In this document: positions 2 to 7,419 of the stretch, piece after piece
Layout of the letters: the number at the start of each line of letters is the position of its first letter
Position numbering within the stretch: position 1 is the stretch's first letter
Notes under the pieces: generated by a model
Database searches by the model: none
Told to the model about the DNA's origin: nothing
The model's input: only the letters and a program-made list of their open reading frames with translations
Translations under genes and position numbers: made by a program
DNA from: an uncultured Candidatus Saccharibacteria bacterium
GTDB taxonomy: Bacteria > Patescibacteriota > CPR2 > UBA1875 > CAIMLA01
Assembly: GCA_964501135.1 (NCBI GenBank)
Contig: CAZCRI010000005.1
Location: 14,771 to 78,770, forward strand
DNA: 64,000 nucleotides
Direction of reading: 5' to 3'

Positions 2-1171
2 AAAATCGATGAGGGCGAGCGTCTCTTTGAACAACTGGTCCTAGGGCGTCCCTACGAAGATGCGCCTTTTATTACCGCTCGAATCTGTGGCGTCTGCCCT
101 ACCGCTCACGTGCTGGTGGCAATCCAAGCAATCGAGGACGCCTTTGGGGTCACCGTAAACGAGAGGATTATGAGCTTGCGTCGCGCCTTACAAGCAGGGC
201 AGATTATTCAATCTCACGCTCTTCACCTCTTTTTTCTTGCTGCTCCCGACTACCTGGATGTCGTAAATGCCATCGAGCTTCATCACACTAGACCCGAGCT
301 TTACCGCACCGCCGTGGCAATGAAGAAATTGGGCGACAAACTGGTAGAGGTTATTGGAGGTCGAGCAATTCACCCGGTAGCCCCAGCGGTGGGTGGATTT
401 CTAAGCGTCCCCGGAAACGAAGTACTAAAGGAGCTGGTGACTGAGCTAAGAGCCGCTATTCCTATGGCGCTAGAGACGGTAGAACTCTTTGCCTCCTTTG
501 ACTACCCGGCGCTAAAGCGTAAGACCGAGTACCTTGCTACTCAGAAAGATGGCAAACTCACTTACCTCGACGGGGACAGCATCGTCTCAAACTCCAAGTT
601 CAAGGCAACAATTGAGAACTATGGCTATGCATTTACAGAAGAAGTGCGTAAAGACTCCAACACAAAGTATGGTACTCGAGACGGTCACGGCTTTATGGTT
701 GGAGCCCTCGCCCGTCTTTCGCTGGACCAGGAGAACCTCAATCCAAAAGCACTCTACGCCCTACGCAGTATTTGGGGCCAGAAATTACCTTCGTACAATA
801 GTTTCCATAACAATGTTGCTCAAGCAATTGAGATCGTACACCTTATCGAGGAAGCTATAATCCAGCTCGAATCAGCAATCGCAAACTCCAAGGAGCTTGC
901 CCGGGTACCATTTACTGTTCGTGAAGGTGCTGGAGTTGGGGCCATAGAAGCGCCTCGCGGCACCCTGTACCACTCGGTAAAAACGGATAAAAACGGAATT
1001 ATCACAGATTACGACATCGTTACACCTACCGTTCAGAGTCTCGTAAACCTCGAGGAAGATGCCGACGAAATGATGAAGAAATACGGCAAACTACCAGAAA
1101 AAGAACTATATCGACAAATCGAAATGCTAATCCGCGCCTACGACCCCTGCATCACCTGTTCGGTACATTAA
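2..1171 (+). CDS. [NiFe]-hydrogenase large (catalytic) subunit, 5'-truncated at window edge; probably a cytoplasmic group 3 enzyme
   Basis: Frame continuous from nt 2: KIDEGERLFEQLVLGRPYEDAPFITARICGVCPTAH (N-terminal RxCGxCxxxH Ni-ligand motif). ORF ends ...AYDPCITCSVH (C-terminal DPCxxCxxH motif). No start codon before window edge. Confidence 0.85.
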   Translation, partial: KIDEGERLFEQLVLGRPYEDAPFITARICGVCPTAHVLVAIQAIEDAFGVTVNERIMSLRRALQAGQIIQSHALHLFFLAAPDYLDVVNAIELHHTRPELYRTAVAMKKLGDKLVEVIGGRAIHPVAPAVGGFLSVPGNEVLKELVTELRAAIPMALETVELFASFDYPALKRKTEYLATQKDGKLTYLDGDSIVSNSKFKATIENYGYAFTEEVRKDSNTKYGTRDGHGFMVGALARLSLDQENLNPKALYALRSIWGQKLPSYNSFHNNVAQAIEIVHLIEEAIIQLESAIANSKELARVPFTVREGAGVGAIEAPRGTLYHSVKTDKNGIITDYDIVTPTVQSLVNLEEDADEMMKKYGKLPEKELYRQIEMLIRAYDPCITCSVH

Positions 1172-1183
1172 ACTAATTCAAAA

Positions 1184-1214
1184 GACCCTCCTACTGGAGG
1201 GTCTACTATTTTTG
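1184..1214. terminator. Rho-independent terminator (bidirectional hairpin) after hydrogenase large subunit
   Basis: gaccctcc-tact-ggagggtc perfect 8-bp GC-rich hairpin followed by tactatttttgtg. Confidence 0.7.
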
Positions 1215-1232
1215 TGCGGGCTGGCTCCCCAG

Positions 1233-1442
1233 TTAATGGAGAGCCAGCTCGTGATAAGCGCCGTGAAGCAGCCCGTAGAGGGTAATGACCAAGGATATGA
1301 CCAAAACCGACATTGGGGCCAGCATCAGCAAGCGCTGATACCACGTTTTGTGTGCTTGGCAATAATCCCAGACACACATCCCCAGGGCGAGTAGCCCTGA
1401 GAGGACGATGGCGGACATGCACAACTCAAGCGCTGTAGGCAT
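1233..1442 (-). CDS. small hypothetical 2-TM membrane protein (~69 aa from internal Met MPTALELCMSAIVLSGLLALGMCVW...)
   Basis: ORF 1233..1511(-); two hydrophobic helices; AAGGG Shine-Dalgarno-like 7 nt upstream of the internal ATG; ends at the shared terminator hairpin. Confidence 0.3.
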   Translation of the reverse strand: MPTALELCMSAIVLSGLLALGMCVWDYCQAHKTWYQRLLMLAPMSVLVISLVITLYGLLHGAYHELALH

Positions 1443-2058
1443 TGTCTTACCCTTCACTAGAATGAATTGGGGACTTGAGCTAGTACTTCTTCTTGGTTTT
1501 GTAAGCCGCAAAGAAGACCGACGCCCAACCGAGGGCGAAAAGCACCTTATCCATTTCTACACCTCCTGGTATCTAGTGAGCTTGACGTGATGTCGTCTGT
1601 GGTGCGTCATCACTGGTTTCCCAACTTTGACACAAAAGGGGTGCGCTCGGATAGCTGGAGTACAAAACTCCTTGGCTTATCCCCCATGGCTAGCCCTTGC
1701 TGGACTAGGAGCGCGTTTGCCTCACGTCAGAGGTATGGTCGATATAAGAGACCTTGGGGCCAATACATCTACGGTTAGGCCGCTAATCCGACAGTTTTCA
1801 GCCTTGACCCGTAGGCCCTGGGCGCGTTACCACTGTCAAACGCTCCGGAGTAAGGGCTCCGGTGGACCCTGTACGCCCAAGCGCACTGACCCGACAAATG
1901 TCGGGCAATGGACGTCATCACTGGTATTTCCAGATTTGACGCATAATACCCTTTCGTCCTACACATGGACTCATCAGCGCAGCAAGGTAGCTGCGGAGGG
2001 GCGAGACAATCCCCCTGGAACTGTCCCGCAAAAAAGCGCGGGTTGAGAGCGGAGCTGC

Positions 2059-2276
2059 TCAGTAGCAGATAAGCTCATCAATTTGGTCGTAATCGTTTCG
2101 GTGTGACCCTACTTCGATTCCATCCGCCTTGAGAACCCTCTCCAACTCTCCCGTGGGACCATAGTCCACGGCGCGAACCTTGATCGCGTGGCGACCCGTT
2201 TGGAAACGGATCTCTGCGAGGAGGGCTTCTGCCGCGAGCGCTTTTAGGATGCGCTCCACCCGGAGTAGATGCTCCA
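2059..2276 (-). CDS. hypothetical 72-aa protein (MEHLLRVERILKALAAEALL...), second gene of a 2-gene GC-rich cassette
   Basis: ATG 6 nt downstream of the stop of the 148-aa ORF (tightly coupled); no recognisable motifs. Confidence 0.4.
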
Positions 2277-2282
2277 TGACTA

Positions 2283-2729
2283 TCACCCCCTTCCCGAGGT
2301 AATATAACGGGCAATGAATACCTGGCGAAAATCTTCTTCTCCTTCGCGCGCATCCTTCCCGAGATTTGCGGCAACGAAGTGCGAATTGCGCGGATACCGG
2401 CCAAGAGCTTCGTCGATATACGAGTCCCATCTCTGCAGTACCACACGGCGCCCACCACGTGCAGAAGTAAAGCTGGCGTTGACTTGGAAGACAGATCCGT
2501 CTTCGTAGATTACTTCTCCACGAATCTTGATCGGCGCGATGAGAGTCGCCTCCATCGCCTTAACGACAGCATCGGCTTCGGATGAAGTCAGATGCTCTGT
2601 CATCACGAAAATCTCGCGTGAGCCCGGATCGCCATCACCCACCAGTCCCTCCGGGTCAATGACTCCTTCGGAGCCCAAAATACCGATGAACTGATGCGCA
2701 AACTTGCTAACCAGATACCTCTGATGCAT
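2283..2729 (-). CDS. hypothetical 148-aa protein (MHQRYLVSKFAHQFIGILGSEG...), first gene of a 2-gene cassette
   Basis: Clean ORF in ~55% GC DNA, preceded by AT-rich promoter region 2730-2950; no family recognised. Confidence 0.45.
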   Translation of the reverse strand: MHQRYLVSKFAHQFIGILGSEGVIDPEGLVGDGDPGSREIFVMTEHLTSSEADAVVKAMEATLIAPIKIRGEVIYEDGSVFQVNASFTSARGGRRVVLQRWDSYIDEALGRYPRNSHFVAANLGKDAREGEEDFRQVFIARYITSGRG

Positions 2730-2871
2730 GATAGCCTCCTAGGCTAGGTTGGTTGTAATGTACCTCGACTCAGTATTTCTGTTTCCCAAGTCGACTGTGT
2801 ATTGTAAACTCTTACCTTACCTTTGTCAATATAATCCTTGCTTTATTTCCATACTTGGTTTATACTATACT

Positions 2872-2916
2872 TTGTAAATCTATTCTGGTTTGTAAATCTT
2901 AATTTTACAATTTAAC
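2872..2916. promoter_or_regulatory. Candidate operator in divergent promoter region: direct repeat TTTGTAAATCT (x2) and inverted repeat TTGTAAA-N7-TTTACAA
   Basis: ctttgtaaatctattctggtttgtaaatcttaattttacaa lies between the divergently transcribed 148-aa gene and the TrmB-family regulator. Confidence 0.35.
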
Positions 2917-2955
2917 AGATGTGTATAACAACTTCTAACCCCATCGGGAGACTCT

Positions 2956-3699
2956 ATGAAACAAAATTTATTAGAAAAATTGGGCCTAAATGAGAATGAG
3001 GCCATTGTTTACAATCTTCTCCTTTCAGAGGGACCGAAGACACCTCCTGAGGTTGCCACAGCGACCGGCATCACTCGGGCAAACTCCTATTTTGTCTTGC
3101 AATCTCTCATGGGAATGAAGCTAGTAGAGCGCAAGGAGCGCAAAAAGAAATTTCTTTATTCTCCCCTTGACCCACATACTCTTGGGGATATTATCGGAAA
3201 AGAGAAAAGGGAAATCTCAGAAAAAGAGCAAGTACTTCAAGCTGTATTGCCAGAGCTCTCCAGTCTTTTCAATCTGCAAAGTAATAAGCCGAGCGTTTCC
3301 TATTTCGAAGGGATTGCTGGAGTAAAAACCCTATATAACGACTCCCTTCTCCAGAAACCTGGAGAAGTCCTGGTGTTTCGTTCCCCACTAGACGATGACT
3401 ATCTCACAAAGGAATTTGCGGAAAAACAATCTCTAAAGATGAAATCTCTAGGCATTAAACTTCGTATGATTAGTCCGGAGACAAAACCCGGAGTCTTCAC
3501 CACCGTTAATGGCGAGGAAATGCTGCGTGAGATACGTTACATCAAAAAGCACTTATTTGAGTCTGAGATATCGATTTACAATAACCGTGTAGCGATCGTA
3601 ACTTACGGTAAAACGAAGGTAAGTATGCTCGTAGAGAACAAGGAGCTGACAAATACTCTACGTAGTATCTTTGAGCTGCTTTGGTCTACACTAAAATAA
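2956..3699 (+). CDS. TrmB-family transcriptional regulator (N-terminal winged HTH, C-terminal sensor domain)
   Basis: N-terminus LGLNENEAIVYNLLLSEGPKTPPEVATATGITRANSYFVLQSLMGMKLVER matches the TrmB/archaeal-type sugar-regulator wHTH; 247 aa. Confidence 0.7.
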   Translation: MKQNLLEKLGLNENEAIVYNLLLSEGPKTPPEVATATGITRANSYFVLQSLMGMKLVERKERKKKFLYSPLDPHTLGDIIGKEKREISEKEQVLQAVLPELSSLFNLQSNKPSVSYFEGIAGVKTLYNDSLLQKPGEVLVFRSPLDDDYLTKEFAEKQSLKMKSLGIKLRMISPETKPGVFTTVNGEEMLREIRYIKKHLFESEISIYNNRVAIVTYGKTKVSMLVENKELTNTLRSIFELLWSTLK

Positions 3700-3743
3700 T
3701 TATCTAAGACGGCTAAGGCCGGCGCTCCGGATGGAGCGCCGGC

Positions 3744-4394
3744 CTACAAGCCCAGTGCCTCTTTCGCCGCCACGGTTGCTTTCTGCAACCTTGGCGTCTT
3801 GTTGTAGTCGAGTAGGGTGACTCCCACCACGTTCTCTGGAATCCCACATGCGGCTTGCGCCGCCAAGACTCGTGCTGACAGCCCCCCGTCGGGAAGCCAC
3901 ACTAGTCCCGCAAGATGCGCGTAAGGGCTTCCATTCGATGGACCGAACTGTACCAGTCCCCGAATCTCCACGTTCGCTACGCCGTTGTCGTAGTAGTAAC
4001 GACCGCCCACTACTGTCAACGGCAGCAGAGTGTGCGCAAAAGCACGAAGTTCCTCGGGTATCTCTCTGCCCACAATGGTAGGTACTGTCTGAAACTTGCG
4101 AAAGTGCTCCGCACCAGAGAAGTGCAGGATCACGCTAGCAAGGTCCACCTTGCCGGTCGTCTGCTTTGCAGTCTCTGCAATCTCCTCGATAGGACGCAGC
4201 TCACGAACCGGAAGCTCGGCCTCTTTCTCGGTAAGACATCTTCCGAATGGCCCGAGAGCGTCGACAAAGTCCTCTGATGTGTTGCACTTCAGATACTCTG
4301 CCGCCTTCACCATCACGATGTTATCGGTACCGCCGCAGGTAGGAAGCAGATGGACGAGTCCATATCTGCCACCCTTGGTTATTTCCAGGTTCAT
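3744..4394 (-). CDS. hypothetical protein immediately downstream of hypC (position where hypD is usually found, but lacks HypD CGxH/GPGCPVC/CPVC motifs)
   Basis: 216-aa ORF, 12-nt gap after hypC, ~58% GC; sequence MNLEITKGGRYGLVHLLPTCGGTDN...; no diagnostic motif. Confidence 0.45.
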   Translation of the reverse strand: MNLEITKGGRYGLVHLLPTCGGTDNIVMVKAAEYLKCNTSEDFVDALGPFGRCLTEKEAELPVRELRPIEEIAETAKQTTGKVDLASVILHFSGAEHFRKFQTVPTIVGREIPEELRAFAHTLLPLTVVGGRYYYDNGVANVEIRGLVQFGPSNGSPYAHLAGLVWLPDGGLSARVLAAQAACGIPENVVGVTLLDYNKTPRLQKATVAAKEALGL

Positions 4395-4405
4395 GCGCTC
4401 ACCTC

Positions 4406-4624
4406 CTAGTGACTACTGTTGGCCTGGGAAATCAATTGTAGTATTTCTTCTGCGTCTTTACTAGGGATTCTGCTCACCGCAAGTTCACCATGGGCAAGAA
4501 TCCAGTCCCCAACCTGGGGATTGTCTATCAGCGAAAGCTCTACTTTATACTCTTTTCCGCCGTGAACGACATATCCATAGTCACCTTCGACGCGAATCAT
4601 TTGCATTGGTGTTGCGAGACACAT
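4406..4624 (-). CDS. hypC: [NiFe]-hydrogenase maturation chaperone HypC/HupF
   Basis: 72 aa beginning MCLATPMQMIRVEG (canonical MC[LI][AG][IV]P N-terminus with essential Cys2), typical size. Confidence 0.8.
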   Translation of the reverse strand: MCLATPMQMIRVEGDYGYVVHGGKEYKVELSLIDNPQVGDWILAHGELAVSRIPSKDAEEILQLISQANSSH

Positions 4625-6633: not shown

Positions 6634-6664
6634 TATTATAGCTCAAAAAATAAAAAGAGCCGCA
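6634..6664 (-). terminator. Rho-independent terminator downstream of tRNA-Ile exon 2
   Basis: Minus strand: AGAGCCGCgttGCGGCTCT hairpin followed by TTTTTATTTTTT. Confidence 0.7.
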
Positions 6665-6728
6665 ACGCGGCTCTAATTTCCAATTTGGTGGGCCTGGCTG
6701 GACTTGAACCAGCGACCAATCGGTTATG

Positions 6729-7336
6729 CGTACCACTACAGCTTTCACTGCCCCTTTCGGGTTTGTAATCTGGACTATCCCTTCTTCCACGTGGGAAGTC
6801 TGCCAACTAGTCTCTACACCTTCCCCGACGATGCTGTCGGGACTTGGCTCGGGATTGCCATGACGTTTTCACGCTTTAGGTTTCCCCGAATTTGACAGAA
6901 TATACTAATGGATCGCTCCACTAGCAGCCCTTTGACTACTTGGCCTATCTAGAGTATTATCGGATTATGAAGGACTTCATAAACTGCAAGGTCTGCGGCA
7001 AACAACTATCGGGACGCCAACTGATGTTCTGTTCTGGCAAGTGCAAGAACAAAGTACATCAGTCTTATGGTGCCCAAAAGGAACGCGCCCTAGAGAGAAA
7101 GCTTTACTTTATCCGTTTGCTCGGCGGCAAATGCCAGGAGTGCGGATATAGCGAGAACCTAGCAGCCCTTTCCTTCCACCACAAAAGCGGTAAGGAATAT
7201 AAGCTGGATTCAAGATCGCTTTCCAATAGGGGTTTGCAGACAATGAGAGATGAAGTTGCCAAATGCGAGCTGCTTTGTGGCAACTGTCACATGAGACTTC
7301 ATAACCCTTCTCTGGACTTAGCCAAATTGTCAATTG
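6729..7336 (-). mobile_element. Group I self-splicing intron (608 nt) inserted between U33 and C34 of tRNA-Ile(CAU); core P3-P9 in 6729..~6900, long P1/P2 extension 6901..7336
   Basis: Intron RNA (minus strand) shows P3 UGUCAA/UUGGCA, P4 AAAUUCGGGGAAA / AAUCCCGAGCC (P/Q elements), P6 CCCGAC..GUCGGG, P7 GAGACUA / GGAUAGUCC (R/S elements), P8 CUUCC-cacgu-GGAAG, P9 CCC-gaaa-GGG. The 5' exon ends in U and the intron ends in G (GGUACG|CAUAA). Confidence 0.8.
6940..7336 (+). CDS. HNH endonuclease domain ORF (homing-endonuclease-like) encoded antisense within the intron P1/P2 extension; reads through in frame into tilS with no stop codon
   Basis: CKVCGK...FCSGKC zinc ribbon, then GGKCQECGYSENLAALSFHHKSGKEYKLDSRSL...CELLCGNCHMRLHN (CxxC...HH...N...CxxCH HNH signature). 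The ORF continues across the antisense tRNA exon 1. Confidence 0.6.
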
Positions 7337-7419
7337 AGCCGACTGCTCTAACCACTGAGCTACAGGCCCGCGAAATTGCTACGAATAGCAAGGGAATTAT
7401 AGCAAAAAAAGCACTGTCT

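Follow-up and report, generated by a model that had tools for sequence, protein, structure and literature searches.

Type III hammerhead ribozymes (Rfam RF00008, clan CL00010) form the class to which the element described here belongs. In RiboJ-type synthetic insulators, a hammerhead placed before a cistron strips away the upstream RNA context and leaves a defined 5′-OH leader ahead of the ribosome-binding site, and OLE RNA is a long structured RNA with a small membrane protein as its partner. Clustered, gene-flanking hammerheads of bacterial polycistronic RNAs cleave both in vitro and in vivo (Perreault et al. 2011, PMC3088659). We analysed a stretch of 64,000 nucleotides (nt), hereafter the window, from an uncultured Candidatus Saccharibacteria bacterium (contig CAZCRI010000005.1), in which two minus-strand orphan genes are followed by a part without convincing open reading frames (ORFs). 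This part spans about 500 nt (2058–1555) and not the ~850 nt given by a first-pass annotation; ORFs of 24 and 69 amino acids (aa) lie below it. In our judgement it is likely to be the intercistronic RNA of an operon linked to a TrmB-like regulator gene, whose type III hammerhead splits the transcript. The element represents a known ribozyme class in a rare, unannotated setting, accompanied by RNA modules and orphan proteins that lack known relatives. What appeared to be junk or foreign DNA becomes a defined RNA-processing element with a predicted, testable cut site.

The hammerhead occupies 2000–1949 on the minus strand, as judged from the Rfam match, the core and the fold. A permissive Rfam scan of 1100–3000 gave a single meaningful match, to Hammerhead_3 at 2003–1947(−), with 30.1 bits and E = 6e-4. 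A default scan at the gathering score reports nothing in the region, because the hammerhead scores below that cut-off. Stem III pairs CCCU (2000–1997) with AGGG (1952–1949) over 4 base pairs (bp) and has an open end. Stem I is formed by CGCAGC (1995–1990) and GCUGCG (1983–1978) with the loop UACCUU, and stem II by GUCC (1970–1967) and GGAC (1959–1956) with the loop AUGUGUA. The core is intact: CUGAUGA (1977–1971) and GAA (1955–1953) provide C3 U4 G5 A6 N7 G8 A9 and G12 A13 A14. The A15.1–U16.1 pair corresponds to A1952–U1997 and is followed by the cleavage-site nucleotide C1996 (position 17), which is not G, so that the predicted cut falls between C1996 and C1995. The local minimum free energy (MFE) structure is the hammerhead fold, with a flanking hairpin that abuts stem III. 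In the MFE folds the 3′ untranslated region of the 72-aa gene holds two hairpins (2041–2001), namely CCCGCG..UGCGGG (2041–2024) and a 13-bp hairpin (2029–2001) that meets stem III without a spacer. The first of them is enlarged by about 100 nt in the related loci L002 and L017, and a hairpin of unrelated sequence stands at the same place ahead of the hammerheads in L017, L020, L030 and L085. Loops I and II are complementary in eight of 11 close copies, with few independent changes (UAC with GUA in the window), and other copies have CUA with UAG (L002) or UUCUU with AGGAA (L085_4). This complementarity could give the usual tertiary contact.

Homologous hammerheads were found on contigs that encode homologues of the 148-aa and 72-aa proteins of the operon. 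There is one copy in L002 (cut by the contig end), one each in L018 and L020, and two in L017, where one lies ahead of the 72-aa gene and the other behind it; all are intergenic and on the coding strand. The close copies are 89–96% identical to that of the window, whereas the adjoining TrmB-like proteins are only 60–78% identical. A pattern scan of metagenome contigs gave 72 loci, most of which carry type III hammerheads that share the 4-bp stem III; several of these loci hold two to four copies. The module recurs in dozens of metagenome loci, invariably at intergenic positions. In an alignment of 18 sequences, 99.6% of the cells are paired, nine of the 14 pairs show compensatory change and covariation extends to each of the six stem I pairs; the pattern that collected the distant copies had partly set stems II and III, but left stem I free. 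None of 500 shuffles or slid registers matched this covariation. The alignment shows stems I and II capped and stem III open, as expected for type III. Core positions are invariant in the 18 copies except for position 4 (U or C), and no family copy has anything but C, A or U at position 17. A covariance model derived from the alignment finds one copy in the window, four in L085, three each in L034 and L044, and two each in L017, L041, L072, L046, L074 and L029. All related copies score 24–40 bits on RF00008, so a whole subfamily of bacterial type III hammerheads lies below the Rfam gathering score and is missed by scans at that threshold.

Compared with the type III class as described, the subfamily shares the full core, the three helices with stem III open and a cleavage-site C after an A–U pair. 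It differs in scoring 24–40 bits against the 48.5 of the class cut-off, in its fixed 4-bp CCCU/AGGG stem III and in having C at position 4 in about half of the close copies. A further difference is the upstream hairpin, which abuts stem III in the closest copies and lies a few nucleotides upstream in many distant ones. With the clustered bacterial and prophage hammerheads (Perreault et al. 2011, PMC3088659) the copies share an intercistronic position, the coding strand, inconstant flanking genes, natural U4C variants and the presence of several copies in one operon (four in L085; three in L034 and L044). In relatives the hammerhead stands 30–57 nt ahead of start codons, which matches the published clustered-hammerhead pattern. 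Unlike those clusters, however, the window copy has no integrase or phage genes nearby and no match to a phage genome, and the arrays here are accompanied by a divergent TrmB-like regulator and a conserved promoter. Where the gene starts 30–57 nt downstream (L018, L020, L030, L085 and L017a), a GUACCUU motif lies 5–12 nt 3′ of the hammerhead; it repeats the loop I sequence UACCUU and could be an anti-Shine–Dalgarno element or a competitor of loop II. In L017 (2597–3123), the 72-aa cistron sits between two hammerheads about 466 nt apart. Double cleavage there could give a single-gene RNA with 5′-OH and 2′,3′-cyclic phosphate ends, joinable into a circle by an RtcB-type ligase.

The operon around the ribozyme appears to be a single minus-strand transcription unit from 2829 to 1183, because the region has one strong promoter and no terminator before 1204–1183. 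The promoter is a sigma-70-type TTGACA-17-TACAAT site with 11 of 12 matches at 2829–2801(−) (−35 TTGACA at 2829–2824, a 17-nt spacer and −10 TACAAT at 2806–2801); it lies where the first-pass annotation had expected an own promoter (2730–2950), and its intergenic region is 74–76% identical in L017, L030 and L096. At the 5′ end of the predicted transcript, a hairpin GUCGAC...GUCGAG (2795–2764, minus strand) carries the motif CAGTCGACTTGGGAAAC, which is kept in the window, L002, L017, L030 and L096; it may just as well be an operator for the TrmB-like regulator. The only intrinsic terminator of the region (1183–1204) is bidirectional and is common to the operon and to the convergent [NiFe] hydrogenase large-subunit gene (110–1171, plus strand). 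The unit consists of the promoter, the 148-aa and 72-aa genes, the ribozyme with its RNA, small membrane ORFs and the terminator, together with the divergent TrmB-like gene. The earlier description as a two-gene cassette was right in that both genes are real, but too narrow for what the unit contains.

Downstream of the ribozyme, at 1946–1600, the minus-strand RNA is built from hairpin modules that recur in related loci, and the first-pass suggestion of a structured RNA is borne out by these modules, with their compensatory changes, as well as by the hammerhead. First, S1 and S2 (1942–1884), whose folds come from the consensus, are 84% identical to L001 5434–5494 and occur in L017 at 3122–3185. 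S1 (1942–1912) is a hairpin with a 3x3 internal loop, GCGUCA-AAU-CUGG..CCAG-UGA-UGACGU, and S2 (1910–1884) is the hairpin CCCGAC-AUUU-GUCGGG. S3 (1797–1750) contains the 17-mer UAGCGGCCUAACCGUAG at 1785–1769, a hairpin with a CCUAA loop, and then a CCAA-loop hairpin (1761–1750) in which three pairs show compensatory change. The 17-mer is found in the window, L001 (two copies), L018 and L017; five of six copies are identical, and L017 has one U-to-C change that turns G–U into G–C. S4 (1737–1638) begins with a small hairpin (1733–1720), followed by a three-way junction closed by GCGCUC (1714–1709) with GAGCGC (1648–1643); it is 87% identical to L001 5331–5466 and has two compensatory pairs in the hairpin CUAGUCC/GGGCUAG. 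Its 3′ tail ACCCC (1642–1638) could form a pseudoknot with AUGGGG of the junction. Lastly, S1′ (1633–1604) is a second copy of S1, recognized from an 82% identical internal repeat (1946–1913 with 1637–1605) and from its fold; its 3′ strand may alternatively pair with 1598–1590, just upstream of the ribosome-binding site. Overall, the S modules are conserved at 84–94% identity with compensatory changes.

The modules are reused in different places. In L001, S4 directly follows the 143-aa gene, in L017 S1 and S2 follow the second hammerhead, and in L001 and L018 S3 lies in the 5′ operon leader. The idea of a circularly permuted or tandem (rolling-circle-like) unit, prompted by the internal repeat of 34 nt and by the permuted order seen in L001, was rejected since L017, L018 and L020 show module reuse in varied combinations. 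No other Rfam family (among riboswitches, RNase P, tmRNA, 6S, twister, pistol, hatchet, HDV-like RNAs and others) matches 1946–1556 or its homologues: besides the hammerhead, the window region gives nothing up to E = 10, and L001, L002 and L017–L020 give no meaningful match to the S modules up to E = 1. ARAGORN finds no tRNA or tmRNA in the region. An Rfam match had been named beforehand as an ordinary explanation of the ORF-free stretch; this holds for the sub-threshold hammerhead, which is a known RNA, but not for the S modules, which match no family. A scan of genome contigs with the S3 17-mer gave 13 chance matches, including an unrelated repeat in L015, and the S3 pattern had no match in metagenome or viral contigs, in a collection that lacks the sample of L018, which should have matched. 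In L018 (4790–4835, compared with L020 545–592), a non-coding 3′-end remnant of an L020-type 60-aa gene precedes the RNA module M-A. This remnant is direct evidence of cassette recombination at or near RNA modules.

Taken together, these features suggest how the operon RNA may be processed. The hammerhead (2000–1949) would most likely cut the transcript as it is made, between C1996 and C1995, and leave as the upstream product the mRNA for the 148-aa and 72-aa proteins, ending in the 13-bp hairpin and CCCUC with a 2′,3′-cyclic phosphate. Before cleavage the 13-bp hairpin probably stacks on the 4-bp stem III, and afterwards it would shield the 3′ end that the cut creates. A 5′-hydroxyl would begin the downstream product, which would continue through about 390 nt of conserved hairpin modules (S1–S4 and S1′) and then reach the small membrane ORFs. 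In this way, the ribozyme would uncouple the stability and translation of the two operon halves, and the most likely role of the S modules would be that of a cis-acting folded leader, through which the stability of the small ORFs or their accessibility to ribosomes is set. The arrangement resembles RiboJ-type insulators in that a hammerhead ahead of a cistron would leave a defined 5′-OH leader. However, the window case is natural, and its leader is not a short hairpin but a conserved structure that runs for about 440 nt, from the 1995 cut as far as the 1554 start codon, with about 390 nt of it (1946–1555) beyond the hammerhead remnant. The likeness to OLE RNA is an analogy only: a long structured RNA is encoded beside small membrane-protein genes, but there is no sequence or Rfam similarity, and the window RNA is part of an mRNA, with no sign of a ribonucleoprotein.

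Several observations weigh against transcript splitting by this leader-bearing ribozyme. The hammerhead has an E value of 0.021 when the whole window is scanned, and its 30.1 bits compare with a gathering score of 48.5; missing that threshold reflects the curated model and its cut-off rather than how the ribozyme is defined. At 4 bp, stem III is short, and the MFE fold of the full-length RNA pairs its 3′ strand (GAAAGGG) with 1640–1634, a potential competitor of the active fold. U is replaced by C at core position 4 in three of the six closest copies, whereas the window copy keeps U. The U4C change reduces hammerhead activity in vitro, and a viroid that carries it stays infectious (Perreault et al. 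2011, PMC3088659); since the change is this frequent among the closest copies, selection may not be for fast cleavage. Only four to five loci are known to carry the S modules, and so their covariation is thin. Finally, the folding z score is −4.1 for the RNA strand of the window, whereas a coding control reaches −2.8 and the opposite strand −2.7, so thermodynamics alone is weak evidence in the window; the corresponding, longer intercistronic RNA of L017 folds with z = −10.7. As for the U4C copies themselves (CCGAUGAG), they are seen at L002 1081–1131, L017 2597–2657 and L018 4382–4442 and also in L030, L034, L038, L070, L074 and L085, often beside consensus copies within one operon. Their recurrence suggests tolerated or deliberately slowed cleavage.

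S1–S4 might instead be a stable, independent non-coding RNA, or else a ribozyme or riboswitch of a new kind, which the hammerhead releases at its 5′ end and which has a function of its own. We regard this as unlikely. The near identity of the 17-mer (five identical copies and a one-base difference in L017), the S4 three-way junction with its possible pseudoknot and the lack of an Rfam family would suit such an RNA, and so would the varying order and context of the modules, which form a 5′ leader in L001 and L018 and are internal in the window, L001 and L017. Self-cleaving ribozymes reportedly cluster in such neighbourhoods, as Weinberg and colleagues are said to have described in 2015. On the other hand, no 3′ processing signal or terminator was found ahead of the small ORFs, the modules without exception lie in the mRNA sense and immediately ahead of a ribosome-binding site, and the sequences are too few for a covariation test.

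Less likely again is an element in which the hammerhead shape serves as a three-way junction, structural or bound by protein, or as a regulated switch that works slowly, and which leaves the operon RNA largely intact. The U4C change in half of the closest copies and in the distant loci named above, with its lower activity in vitro (PMC3088659), agrees with this view, as do the 4-bp stem III and the competing long-range pairing of GAAAGGG with 1640–1634. However, the core of the window copy is the consensus, all other core positions are invariant in all copies, and the cleavage-site nucleotide is always C, A or U. We know of nothing except catalysis that needs the exact hammerhead core.

The lower half of the operon could also be read as a module resembling type I toxin–antitoxin systems, in which the 24-aa peptide, the 69-aa peptide or both would be produced once processing frees a translation-blocking leader, with an antisense RNA opposing them; we consider this improbable. 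Its basis is the 24-aa ORF, which is hydrophobic, basic at its C-terminus and preceded by a strong AGGAGG, together with the long structured leader and a weak promoter-like site at 1436–1463(+) that would yield RNA antisense to this ORF and its ribosome-binding site. That site matches only nine of 12 positions, chance alone would place about two such sites in the region, the 24-aa ORF has no homologue and is absent from relatives, and there is no PADLOC or Pfam match.

That the stretch is a decayed coding gene (the pseudogenised remnant of the first-pass annotation) or functionless GC-rich foreign filler is very improbable: the composition is unusual for the genome and a 139-aa frame is open on the plus strand, but the ORFs within 1556–2058, on both strands, match no family, conservation follows RNA helices and not a reading frame, blocks are 84–96% identical across loci whose proteins have diverged far more, helix substitutions are compensatory, and insertions fall in hairpin loops, such as the ~100 nt in the 2041–2024 hairpin of L002 and L017.

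The TrmB-like regulator that accompanies the hammerhead operon is encoded divergently at 2956–3699(+) as a 247-aa protein. Its N-terminal winged-helix TrmB domain matches PF01978 with 58.4 bits (residues 6–73), no Pfam or NCBIfam match extends beyond residue ~98, and the TrmBL1 equivalog reaches 20 bits where 650 are required. We limit the name to TrmB-like because a C-terminal sugar-binding or effector domain is not recognisable. From its position the protein presumably controls the operon promoter. A divergent TrmB-like gene is also present in L001, L017, L018 and L096 and, as a TrmB profile search of the hammerhead loci showed, in eight further metagenome loci: L030, L085 (two copies), L034, L044, L041, L072 and L080. 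Every close locus combines the divergent 247-aa TrmB-like gene with the conserved promoter and the 5′ hairpin, but the cargo varies: the window and L002 carry the 148-aa gene, L001 a 370-nt leader and then a 143-aa gene, L017 a 165-aa gene, L018 a leader, a hammerhead and then a 91-aa gene, and L096 another gene. The locus adjoins the hydrogenase gene and hypC in the window and L096, and dnaJ in L001, L018, L085 and L097. Distant operons encode Csx3-AAA, Mvol_0529-family, STIV B116-like, MoxR, radical-SAM and DHH proteins, a cargo that resembles defence or type III CRISPR accessory genes.

A link between a TrmB-like regulator with a conserved promoter and hammerhead arrays did not come up in a full-text literature search. 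A more far-reaching reading, which we regard as unlikely, is an undescribed genetic system in which a TrmB-like regulator gates the conserved promoter of hypervariable arrays of small orphan genes, whose cistrons are separated by hammerheads and reusable RNA modules (S1–S4, M-A and X1, the last at L018 4290–4380). Some of these modules could be new classes of ribozyme or riboregulator. Operons punctuated by hammerheads and tied to one regulator family and a conserved promoter offer a handle on the long-open role of bacterial hammerheads. The distant loci also contain ORF-poor leaders of about 1–1.8 kb (L034 4704–6470, L044 3884–5338, L072 4967–6527 and L041 1209–2251) with shared blocks that are 70–89% identical, including a ~65-nt hairpin around AAACCUUGAACAAG, and no Rfam family matches them. 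These leaders may hold undescribed large RNAs.

The protein genes of the operon begin with the 148-aa orphan gene (2729–2283, minus strand), which is preceded by AGGAGG at 2740–2735. The 72-aa orphan gene (2277–2059, minus strand) starts 5 nt past the stop codon of the former (gap 2282–2278), one less than the 6-nt spacing first reported. Both genes are real, where the first-pass annotation had them, and under purifying selection: pairwise ratios of nonsynonymous to synonymous divergence (dN/dS) are 0.17–0.20 for the 148-aa gene and 0.13–0.36 for the 72-aa gene. Their families are small. A search of 5.8 billion clusters gave two homologues of the 148-aa protein and, for the 72-aa protein, five clusters (78–100% identity to the query), one of which is the window's own, and a full HMMER pass over 1.84 billion representatives gave only five credible relatives of the 148-aa protein. 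In relatives the 72-aa gene is preceded by differing upstream genes. The lack of recognisable motifs noted from the sequence holds up, as the 148-, 72-, 69-, 216- and 138-aa proteins have no match in Pfam, PHROGs, PADLOC or NCBIfam, and a protein search with PDB sequence profiles gave none. AlphaFold2 (AF2) models of the two orphans are poor, with predicted local distance difference test (pLDDT) values of 43 (148 aa) and 63 (72 aa), and Foldseek returned no match at E ≤ 0.001. The locus thus brings to light two orphan protein families and several conserved RNA modules without known relatives. The synonymous divergence (dS) of the 72-aa gene is 0.3–0.8 (window, L002, L017, L018 and L020), compared with 1.3–2.0 for the 148-aa gene, and the 72-aa gene and the hammerhead are far less diverged than the adjoining TrmB-like proteins (58–78% aa identity) would lead one to expect. 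The low dS of the 72-aa gene suggests either that lineages have exchanged the cassette or that the coding sequence is constrained at the RNA level.

Below the RNA modules, an AGGAGG (1567–1562) precedes the 24-aa hydrophobic ORF MDKVLFALGWASVFFAAYKTKKKY (1554–1480), with 7 nt between them and the ATG (feature 1567–1480, minus strand); it has no homologue among those searched and is absent from the relatives, and we treat it as a candidate gene. The 69-aa ORF (1442–1233, minus strand) has two predicted membrane helices and is also predicted by a gene caller on the identical Logan contig L003. At the equivalent place, relatives encode small two-helix proteins without detectable sequence similarity to it. 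The 69-aa ORF was considered as a homologue of the small membrane proteins of L018 and L020 and rejected, as similarity is undetectable.

The jump in base composition above a ~45% background that was first noticed here is real. An exact count gives 54.0% GC across 1172–2750 and 44.5% for the whole window, with 55.5% at 1556–2058 and 54.4% at 2059–2729, and the sliding profile rises from ~47% over the hydrogenase gene to 51–58% at 1200–2700 and falls to 34–43% over the promoter region and the next gene. GC at third codon positions (GC3) is 0.56, 0.64 and 0.70 for the 148-, 72- and 69-aa ORFs, compared with 0.38–0.55 in eleven other window genes, a set that leaves out a 216-aa gene with GC3 0.62. 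The cassette region is GC-richer than its own flanks in L001, L017 and L085 as well. Lateral acquisition, as had been proposed, is plausible but not shown. In its favour, the cassette stands apart in composition, close relatives differ in its gene content, and the 72-aa gene and hammerhead are better conserved than the adjoining regulator; against it, no flanking repeats occur in 1100–4500 and no integrase was found in the window. Any acquisition was not recent, because a relative with a 61% identical TrmB-like protein has the same TrmB/HypC synteny.

The window locus has none of the hallmarks of a prophage or integrated element (integrase or recombinase, phage genes, attachment repeats). No PHROG family matches, and neither DNA nor TrmB-like protein searches of 50,697 phage genomes gave a hit. 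Among viral contigs the M-A, S4 and subfamily hammerhead patterns had no match, and the general hammerhead pattern found only three contigs, with stem I-open (type I) hammerheads and not this type III subfamily. In L017 (9117–10551), a large serine recombinase lies beside a truncated tRNA gene, 6–7 kb downstream of the hammerhead cassette; this pair is the only mobile-element hallmark near any close locus.

Two further features of the window lie outside the operon. Between the TrmB-like gene and hypC, the 216-aa gene at 3744–4394(−) is a second GC-rich orphan (56% GC, GC3 0.62, no family match), and the syntenic L096 has an unrelated 207-aa gene in this slot, which makes it a second variable position beside the regulator. 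At 6640–7350, a group I intron match (RF00028, 58.9 bits, 6944–6748, minus strand) precedes, on the same strand, a sequence resembling the 3′ half of a tRNA (with the T-arm GCUGG-UUCAAGU-CCAGC and, after it, CAGGCCC-A-CCA) and a terminator. No intact tRNA turns up in this interval when ARAGORN allows introns, and no matching 5′ acceptor strand is seen. On the opposite strand of the interval, the first ~140 aa of a 602-aa 'TilS' ORF resemble an HNH endonuclease, and the TilS domain starts near residue 173.

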